DNA of 64,000 nt, from NCBI RefSeq assembly GCF_003790525.1, contig NZ_CP033635.1; one strand, given 5' to 3'. Shown piece after piece: positions 61,089 through 61,540 of the stretch. Each line of letters starts with the position of its first letter. Position 1 is the first letter of the stretch. The notes beneath the pieces were generated by a model. It was given only the letters and a program-made list of their open reading frames with translations, ran no database searches and was not told the DNA's origin. The DNA is from Escherichia coli. GTDB lineage: Bacteria; Pseudomonadota; Gammaproteobacteria; Enterobacterales; Enterobacteriaceae. The translations under genes were made by a program, and so were the position numbers.

Positions 61089-61177
61089 TGCCTGATGCGA
61101 CGCTGTCGCGTCTTATCATGCCTACGAGTTCGATGCCCTGTGTAGGCCAGATAAGGCGTTTACGCCGCATCCGGCAC
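61089..61177. repeat. REP/BIME element (two inverted REP-like palindromic units)
   Basis: gcctgatgcgacgctgtcgcgtcttatcatgcctac and, inverted, gtaggccagataaggcgtttacgccgcatccggc, typical enterobacterial REP sequences. Confidence 0.6.
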
Positions 61178-61199
61178 GCAAACGTAATGGAATGCACAA

Positions 61200-61508
61200 A
61201 TGGATTATTTAATTCCAGTTTGTCTGGCATTGCTGGGATTGCTCGCGATCTTCACCCCCAATTGGCTGATCCCTGTTTTTATCGTCGTGGGGGGATGGCT
61301 GGGGGTACTTGCCTGGGGTTGGCTCTGGCTAATGATTTTTTTACCTTTACTTAACGGTGTCGGGCTTGCTTATGCCCTGTGGTTGATGTTCAAAAGGCCA
61401 TCCATAGCATCCCGCCTGGTTGCTGCATGCTGTGTTATCTCCGTCATTCTGATGTTAGCGCTTTATTATGCTTTCCTGACTATGCCGCCGTTCCCGCCTC
61501 AGCACTAA
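61200..61508 (+). CDS. hypothetical small hydrophobic Trp-rich membrane protein
   Basis: 102-aa ORF (MDYLIPVCLALLGLLAIF...GGWLGVLAWGWLWLMIFLPLL) with about three predicted TM segments; weak SD; followed by a hairpin; unconfirmed. Confidence 0.3.
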   Translation: MDYLIPVCLALLGLLAIFTPNWLIPVFIVVGGWLGVLAWGWLWLMIFLPLLNGVGLAYALWLMFKRPSIASRLVAACCVISVILMLALYYAFLTMPPFPPQH

Positions 61509-61540
61509 GCCTGATAGCCAGAGGCTATCAGGCAACACTT

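Follow-up and report, generated by a model that had tools for sequence, protein, structure and literature searches.

The window analyzed here is a stretch of 64,000 nucleotides of Escherichia coli DNA (RefSeq assembly GCF_003790525.1, contig NZ_CP033635.1), in which tusA and the convergent gene zntA are separated by an interval of 555 bp (positions 60986-61540). The features of this interval and of its surroundings are listed in Table 1. Most of the layout given in the original prediction, which had been made from the sequence alone, was borne out. The gene coordinates gave the gap length that it stated, and the 102-codon open reading frame (orf102) was found as described, with a product that is hydrophobic (GRAVY 1.45; 72% L/I/V/F/M/A/G/W) and rich in Trp (6 residues, 5.9%). 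The BIME was confirmed by matches to the REP consensus, but it consists of three REPs and not two, and the hairpin that follows the ORF has the expected perfect stem but a loop of 3 nucleotides where 4 had been claimed. The value of about 240 bp that had been given for the tusA-zntA gap of K-12 was wrong, as the gap in MG1655 measures 101 bp. In RefSeq, the orf102 product is already annotated as a hypothetical protein (E. coli 2016C-3878, in which a 1-kb query was 100% identical).

Table 1. Coordinates of genes and sequence features at the tusA-zntA locus (positions in the window, except for the last row, where they refer to the individual fetched loci)
Feature	Position	Strand	Remarks
tusA (sulfurtransferase TusA, 81 aa)	60740-60985	+	Upstream co-directional neighbour; RefSeq WP_000130623.1 at a 100%-identical locus
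108-aa ORF, TTG start	61028-61354	+	Spans the REPs; overlaps orf102 in a different frame
REP1, degenerate	61041-61074		GTAGG...GGC orientation; read from sequence; inside sub-threshold naRNA4 match
REP2	61090-61125	+	GCC...CTAC orientation; 1 mismatch to REP consensus pattern
REP3	61142-61175	-	Inverted relative to REP2; 0 mismatches to REP consensus
GGAATGC, weak Shine-Dalgarno-like motif	61189-61195	+	Ends 4 nt before the ATG
orf102 (102 codons; small hydrophobic, probably inner-membrane protein, four predicted helices)	61200-61508	+	ATG start; WP_000385055.1
57-nt (19-codon) tandem duplication in orf102	61203-61259 and 61260-61316	+	Identified by self-identity at offset 57
Hairpin	61509-61533		Arms 61509-61519 and 61523-61533; perfect 11-bp stem, 3-nt loop
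zntA (Zn/Cd/Pb P-type ATPase)	61541-63739	-	Convergent downstream neighbour
DUF2004 genes of other loci	L023 3369-3866; L024 3378-3872; L031 1869-2363; L030 3501-4067; L020 688-1176	- (L023, L024, L031, L020)	

The three REPs are imperfect palindromes of about 35 bp that lie outside the genes, between tusA and the ORF, in alternating orientations (-, +, -). Searches with the REP consensus on shuffled sequence gave no matches (100 shuffles for REP2), and the degenerate REP1 aligns with an intact REP of other strains. The Rfam scan of the interval returned nothing beyond a sub-threshold match to the REP-derived naRNA4 (61044-61122; 46.6 bits, E 8.6e-7), which represents the REPs themselves; the naRNA4 family derives from one REP cluster. 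Per E. coli genome, a query that contained the REPs gave a median of 6 matches, versus 1 for the ORF alone. The number of REPs upstream of the ORF differs among strains, from 1 to 3 or more, and REP3 is the only one in the ORF-bearing strains with the shortest gap (L002). In E. coli RMDEC465 (L035, 1-52), a gene for an IS110-like IS621 transposase lies directly upstream of orf102 and occupies the place where the REPs and tusA normally sit; IS621 targets REP sequences. Both the three REPs and the hairpin of the window are ordinary elements.

The promoter scan of the segment from tusA to the ORF found no sigma-70-like promoter, and no terminator was called there, so that read-through from tusA across the REPs would be the likeliest source of an orf102 transcript. 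REPs stabilise upstream mRNA and attenuate downstream expression, and orf102 is therefore probably expressed at a low level. The GGAATGC motif upstream of the start codon is a candidate ribosome-binding site; it was kept in the Escherichia copies that were read (GGAATGG in one of them) and at the locus of the distant homologue P0039, which is described below. The hairpin (dG -20.6 kcal/mol, z -4.9) lies in the space that separates the stop codon of the ORF from that of the convergent zntA, and ends 7 nt before the latter. Its tails, AACACUUUUACUU on the + strand and UUAGUGCUG on the - strand, contain no canonical U-tract, and the terminator scan made no call. The hairpin is conserved in other ORF-bearing loci that do not contain the DUF2004 gene (see below), and the variants seen alter only the loop or one side of the stem. 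It is likely to be a 3'-end structure common to the ORF and zntA transcripts. A second, terminator-like hairpin, GGCGTAAACTAGCGCC, followed by a run of seven T residues, was observed at positions 60700-60725, in the divergent region between yhhQ and tusA, where about 15 nt separate it from the downstream tusA start. The distant contig L020 has a comparable hairpin, also with a T-run, at the corresponding place (about 113-140). Rfam gave no match for the hairpin upstream of tusA, and this element might act as an attenuator in the leader or form the 3' end of something else.

The length of the ORF was rejected as evidence for a gene, since an ORF of at least 102 codons arose in 11% of shuffles of the 555-bp gap. 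The overlapping 108-aa ORF is open in another frame of the same strand (Table 1). Several database proteins (P0023, P0026, P0027, P0030, P0038, and P0041) are chimeras of this 108-aa frame and the orf102 frame, and the chimeric frames stem from indels at a run of six G (61289-61294) and a run of seven T (61336-61342). These indels may represent genuine frameshift alleles, or they may be sequencing errors at homopolymers. The GC and GC3 contents of orf102 resemble those of the neighbouring genes.

Among complete E. coli genomes, orf102 was carried by 317 of 5,426 (5.8%), always at the same site, in single copy, and on the chromosome. By identity, the copies formed three bands (99% or more, 95-99%, and 90-95%). 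The ORF was absent from the other 94% or so, K-12 included. Absence or disruption of the frame in most strains had been put forward as a result that would speak against a gene. Taken literally, the absence is what was found, but the frame was intact wherever it was sampled by DNA, and absence from 94% of the genomes points to dispensability rather than to spuriousness. A BIME-only allele was present in 536 of the 5,426 genomes (9.9%). Its junction retains ACTGATAGCC, a possible remnant of a hairpin arm, which suggests that this allele arose by deletion and not that the longer one arose by insertion. The remaining genomes (84%, K-12 among them) contain the short 101-bp allele (L019/L004), which holds a boxC-like hairpin/G-quadruplex element, CCCTCACCCTAACCCTCTCCCC...GGGGCGAGGGG, that has been catalogued as 'HPGQ' (PMC5100583). 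In the window, only the right flank of this element, GGACCGATCGCGCTCAAT, is left (60986-61010).

The identity of the flanks to K-12 was 93-94% at the junctions and 97-100% farther out, and a divergence that peaks at the junctions suggests allele exchange by recombination. Over a longer range (58700-64000, compared with L019), the identity to K-12 is mosaic, from 93% to 100% per 200-bp segment, and is lowest at both edges of the tusA-zntA interval and within yhhQ and dcrB; this pattern points to ancient blocks of recombination surrounding the indel. The last codons of tusA read …RKSG versus …RKGG in the comparison of the window with K-12, and E. albertii differs likewise.

The synteny tusA-ORF-zntA is shared by E. 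marmotae, E. whittamii, E. albertii, and other cryptic-clade species. It was present in all of the fetched loci that reach far enough upstream, and in every fetched locus a distance of 32 nt separates the stop of the ORF from that of zntA. When 100,044 species-representative genomes were scanned, with confirmation by tblastn, orf102 was detected in five Escherichia representatives (Escherichia sp. E1V33, SCPM-O-B-8794, the E. albertii type strain, Escherichia sp. MOD1-EC7003, and E. whittamii), with the frame intact in each. An intact 309-nt CDS was also present in each of ten E. coli genomes drawn from the different identity bands. The copies found by DNA or tblastn search, and not by protein search, were intact and exactly 309 nt long in 15 of 15 cases. 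Protein searches, both word-based and by exhaustive HMMER, found close relatives solely in Escherichia. A minority of database records (P0023, P0026-28, and P0030-38) are frameshift or nonsense alleles, mostly at the G6 and T7 runs, and a W33* nonsense allele occurs in some E. albertii.

Selection on orf102 was analyzed using 15 unique alleles, a neighbour-joining tree, and Fitch reconstruction. The tree held 75 synonymous and 83 nonsynonymous changes, where 29% synonymous is the neutral expectation (binomial P 1.2e-6). Omega was about 0.4-0.46 (tree-based, about 0.46). Substitutions at codon positions 1, 2, and 3 numbered 43, 35, and 80, and no stop codon was seen on the sampled tree, versus 6.7 expected. 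The other two sense frames and two of the three antisense frames appeared neutral. The third antisense frame, which contains no long open ORF, gave an echo of the signal (P 3e-4) as a result of wobble positions that it shares with the orf102 frame. The pooled pN/pS was 0.46 for the first set of alleles and 0.38 for the DNA-ascertained set. By segment, pN/pS was 0.28-0.31 for codons 45-102 and 0.59-0.72, or near neutral, for codons 1-44; the neighbours tusA, zntA, and yhhQ gave values of 0.02-0.04. The pattern of substitution indicates that purifying selection on orf102 is real but relaxed, and weak in comparison with that on the neighbouring genes.

The AlphaFold2 model of the protein (16-sequence alignment; pLDDT 77.8, pTM 0.62) contains helices at residues 4-18, 21-39, 41-65, and 69-93, the first of which is 15 residues long only. 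Together with hydropathy, it indicates four membrane helices. The only basic residues are K65, R66, and R72, all in the loop between helices 3 and 4, so that the protein combines hydrophobic helices with a single positively charged loop. The positive-inside rule would place this loop in the cytoplasm and the conserved PFP(A/P)QH tail outside. Scans of Pfam, NCBIfam, PHROGs, and PADLOC with the protein and the alignment gave no match above the cut-off, the best family score being 17.1 bits for NF009243, whose cut-off is 95. The PDB sequence search gave no match for the protein, and fold searches returned generic helical bundles only.

An exhaustive HMMER profile search identified an 83-aa homologue, P0039 (library-wide E 1.3e-5), which shares 37% identity with the window protein over 83 residues in a pairwise BLASTP comparison (E 6e-16). 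Its gene begins 35 nt after tusA on the same strand. The source is a single 1.4-kb metagenomic contig, and the TusA encoded on it belongs to the same 90%-identity cluster as Superficieibacter TusA. No copy of the ORF is present in the sequenced Superficieibacter genomes with the closest TusA, and a word-based protein search with P0039 as the query returned P0039 alone. P0039 is 19 aa shorter than the window protein and aligns to its residues 21-102. The 19 residues that it does not contain match a tandem duplication of 57 nt in orf102, where comparison of the sequence with itself at offset 57 gave 31 of 54 identical nucleotides, versus 21 or fewer at every other offset. The duplication gave orf102 a further helix at the N-terminus, which the 83-aa homologue does not have. 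The start residues of the two proteins are consistent with the predicted topology, as P0039 begins with MK (N-terminus in) and the four-helix protein begins with MD (N-terminus out). Together, orf102 and P0039 appear to form an undescribed family of two branches that is linked to tusA.

A further gene, convergent to orf102, is found at some of these loci. It encodes a protein of 162-165 aa that NCBI names 'DUF2004 domain-containing protein', although scans of Pfam, NCBIfam, and PADLOC gave no match above threshold for it. The DUF2004 gene separates orf102 from zntA in three genomes (the E. albertii type strain, MOD1-EC7003, and E. coli GF4-3); in E. fergusonii, it is located between tusA and zntA without orf102. 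The P0039 contig also carries a convergent DUF2004 gene, of 162 aa, after its ORF. In complete E. coli genomes the gene was present in 2 of 5,426, and it is missing from the window. The most economical reading of this distribution is an ancestral locus with the arrangement tusA -> orf -> <- DUF2004 <- zntA that was eroded by independent deletions. A literature search found no paper on orf102, its accession numbers, or DUF2004, and the sole paper found on the tusA/zntA intergenic region treats the G-quadruplex/hairpin element of the K-12 allele (PMC5100583).

The results are best explained if the interval bears a genuine but dispensable gene for a 102-residue membrane protein that is ancestral to Escherichia at this site, and we consider this explanation likely. 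Of the two possibilities that the original prediction left side by side, the genuine small membrane protein is the one that gained support, from synteny and length that were kept in at least six Escherichia species, from frame-specific purifying selection, and from the distant homologue adjacent to tusA. The protein would consist of a conserved three-helix core and an additional N-terminal helix derived from the 19-codon duplication. From the oldest arrangement, in which orf102 and the DUF2004 gene were both present, the lineages would have lost parts by deletion. Most E. coli, including K-12, would have lost both genes; the window strain would have kept orf102, lost the DUF2004 gene, and gained a three-REP BIME upstream. 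The ORF probably relies on weak read-through from tusA, past the REPs, for its transcription and would be translated from the weak GGA-type ribosome-binding site, with a transcript that may end at, or be stabilised by, the hairpin in common with that of zntA. The protein would then insert with the K65-R66...R72 loop in the cytoplasm and the PFP(A/P)QH tail outside. What counts against a gene is that selection is weak beside that on the neighbours and nearly neutral in codons 1-44, that frameshift and nonsense alleles occur, that 94% of complete E. coli genomes do not have the ORF, that three REP stem-loops would obstruct read-through and no sigma-70-like promoter was found, that the literature search gave no paper on the protein, and that the deep homologue comes from one metagenomic contig of 1.4 kb.

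One alternative is that orf102 is a decaying relic that is now non-functional in E. coli and has had too little time to break. For a bacterial gene, it has a high omega (0.38-0.46 over its whole length, and 0.6-0.7 for the N-terminal half), and deletion has occurred repeatedly, as in the short and the BIME-only alleles. The frameshift and nonsense alleles in the databases and the empty promoter scan also fit such a relic. We nevertheless regard this as unlikely, because the synonymous excess is significant (P about 1e-6) and specific to the codon phase of orf102, stop codons are missing where about 6.7 were expected, the 15 DNA-ascertained copies from several species are all intact and of equal length, and codons 45-102 are well constrained.

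Recent insertion of a mobile cassette, composed of the REPs and a cargo ORF and gained horizontally by a minority of E. coli, would account for the patchy distribution in this species (5.8%), for three allele classes that are up to 8% apart, and for flanks that diverge most at the junctions. However, the position and synteny are constant in at least six Escherichia species, and the segment was never found on plasmids or in multiple copies. The site is fixed, the interval contains no transposase, integrase, or other recombinase gene and no terminal repeats or target-site duplication, and the GC content is typical of the surroundings. The possible hairpin-arm remnant in the BIME-only allele also argues against an insertion, and this explanation is very improbable. 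Finally, a chance open frame in REP-derived, repeat-derived, or non-coding intergenic DNA is hardly credible, even though shuffled gaps yield frames of this length, another ORF overlaps, and REPs lie directly upstream, given that the ORF DNA contains no REP and matches one place per genome, that codon periodicity is confined to the orf102 frame, and that a 37%-identical homologue occupies the same position after tusA in another genus-level lineage.

If orf102 is a genuine gene, the annotation of the 'hypothetical protein' between tusA and zntA, carried by about 6% of E. coli and several other species of Escherichia, would be settled as a gene under selection and not an artefact of gene calling. 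The K-12 arrangement would be derived, the result of deletion at a small locus where two further genes once stood, and the locus would be a compact natural example of genes lost in steps, of REP expansion, and of internal duplication of a helix in a small membrane protein. The family also has natural knock-outs, which are usable for testing links to TusA or ZntA. The locus reveals no new kind of system.

As to function, the most likely role is that of a putative small accessory membrane subunit. A more specific proposal, which we hold to be quite improbable, is that orf102 and its 83-aa relative belong to an undescribed family that was part of an ancestral tusA operon and acts together with TusA at the membrane. 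Such a protein could, for example, tether TusA or gate sulfur transfer, by analogy with YeeE and the TusA-like protein YeeD. If this were true, K-12 and the majority of E. coli would amount to natural knock-outs for a partner of TusA.

The known elements and proteins with which the locus was compared include the REP/BIME elements of E. coli. The three REPs at 61041-61175 fit the consensus, alternate in orientation, and lie between genes, and their copy number at the tusA-zntA site varies by strain (0, 1, 3 or more). They do not differ from other REPs in any unusual way; they are separate from the ORF and add nothing to the coding sequence. The MnhF/MrpF/PhaF proteins, subunit F of monovalent cation/H+ antiporters (NF009243; PDB 6u8y_B), are similar in being three-helix proteins of roughly 85-90 aa. 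An identity with MnhF/MrpF, to which residues 45-93 gave a weak alignment, was rejected as compositional.

The small hydrophobic inner-membrane accessory subunits of enterobacteria include KdpF of the Kdp P-type ATPase, AcrZ, CydX, and MgtS. The orf102 protein is similar to these in that it is small, nearly all transmembrane, and without an enzymatic motif, and that it is encoded beside larger transport or sulfur-transfer genes. In contrast, it has no sequence or family kinship with them, and its 102 aa and four helices make it bigger than the majority of these subunits. Moreover, the conserved neighbours of orf102 are tusA and the DUF2004 gene rather than zntA.

In the YeeD-YeeE and TsuB-TsuA systems, a TusA-like protein is paired with a membrane partner for thiosulfate uptake. 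The gene order at the present locus is similar, as a TusA-family gene is followed by a gene for a membrane protein on the same strand, with a gap of 35 nt at the P0039 locus. However, YeeE and TsuA are large, multi-helix proteins with conserved cysteines, whereas orf102 has no Pfam match, no cysteine is common to orf102 and P0039, and the TusA of K-12 works without orf102.
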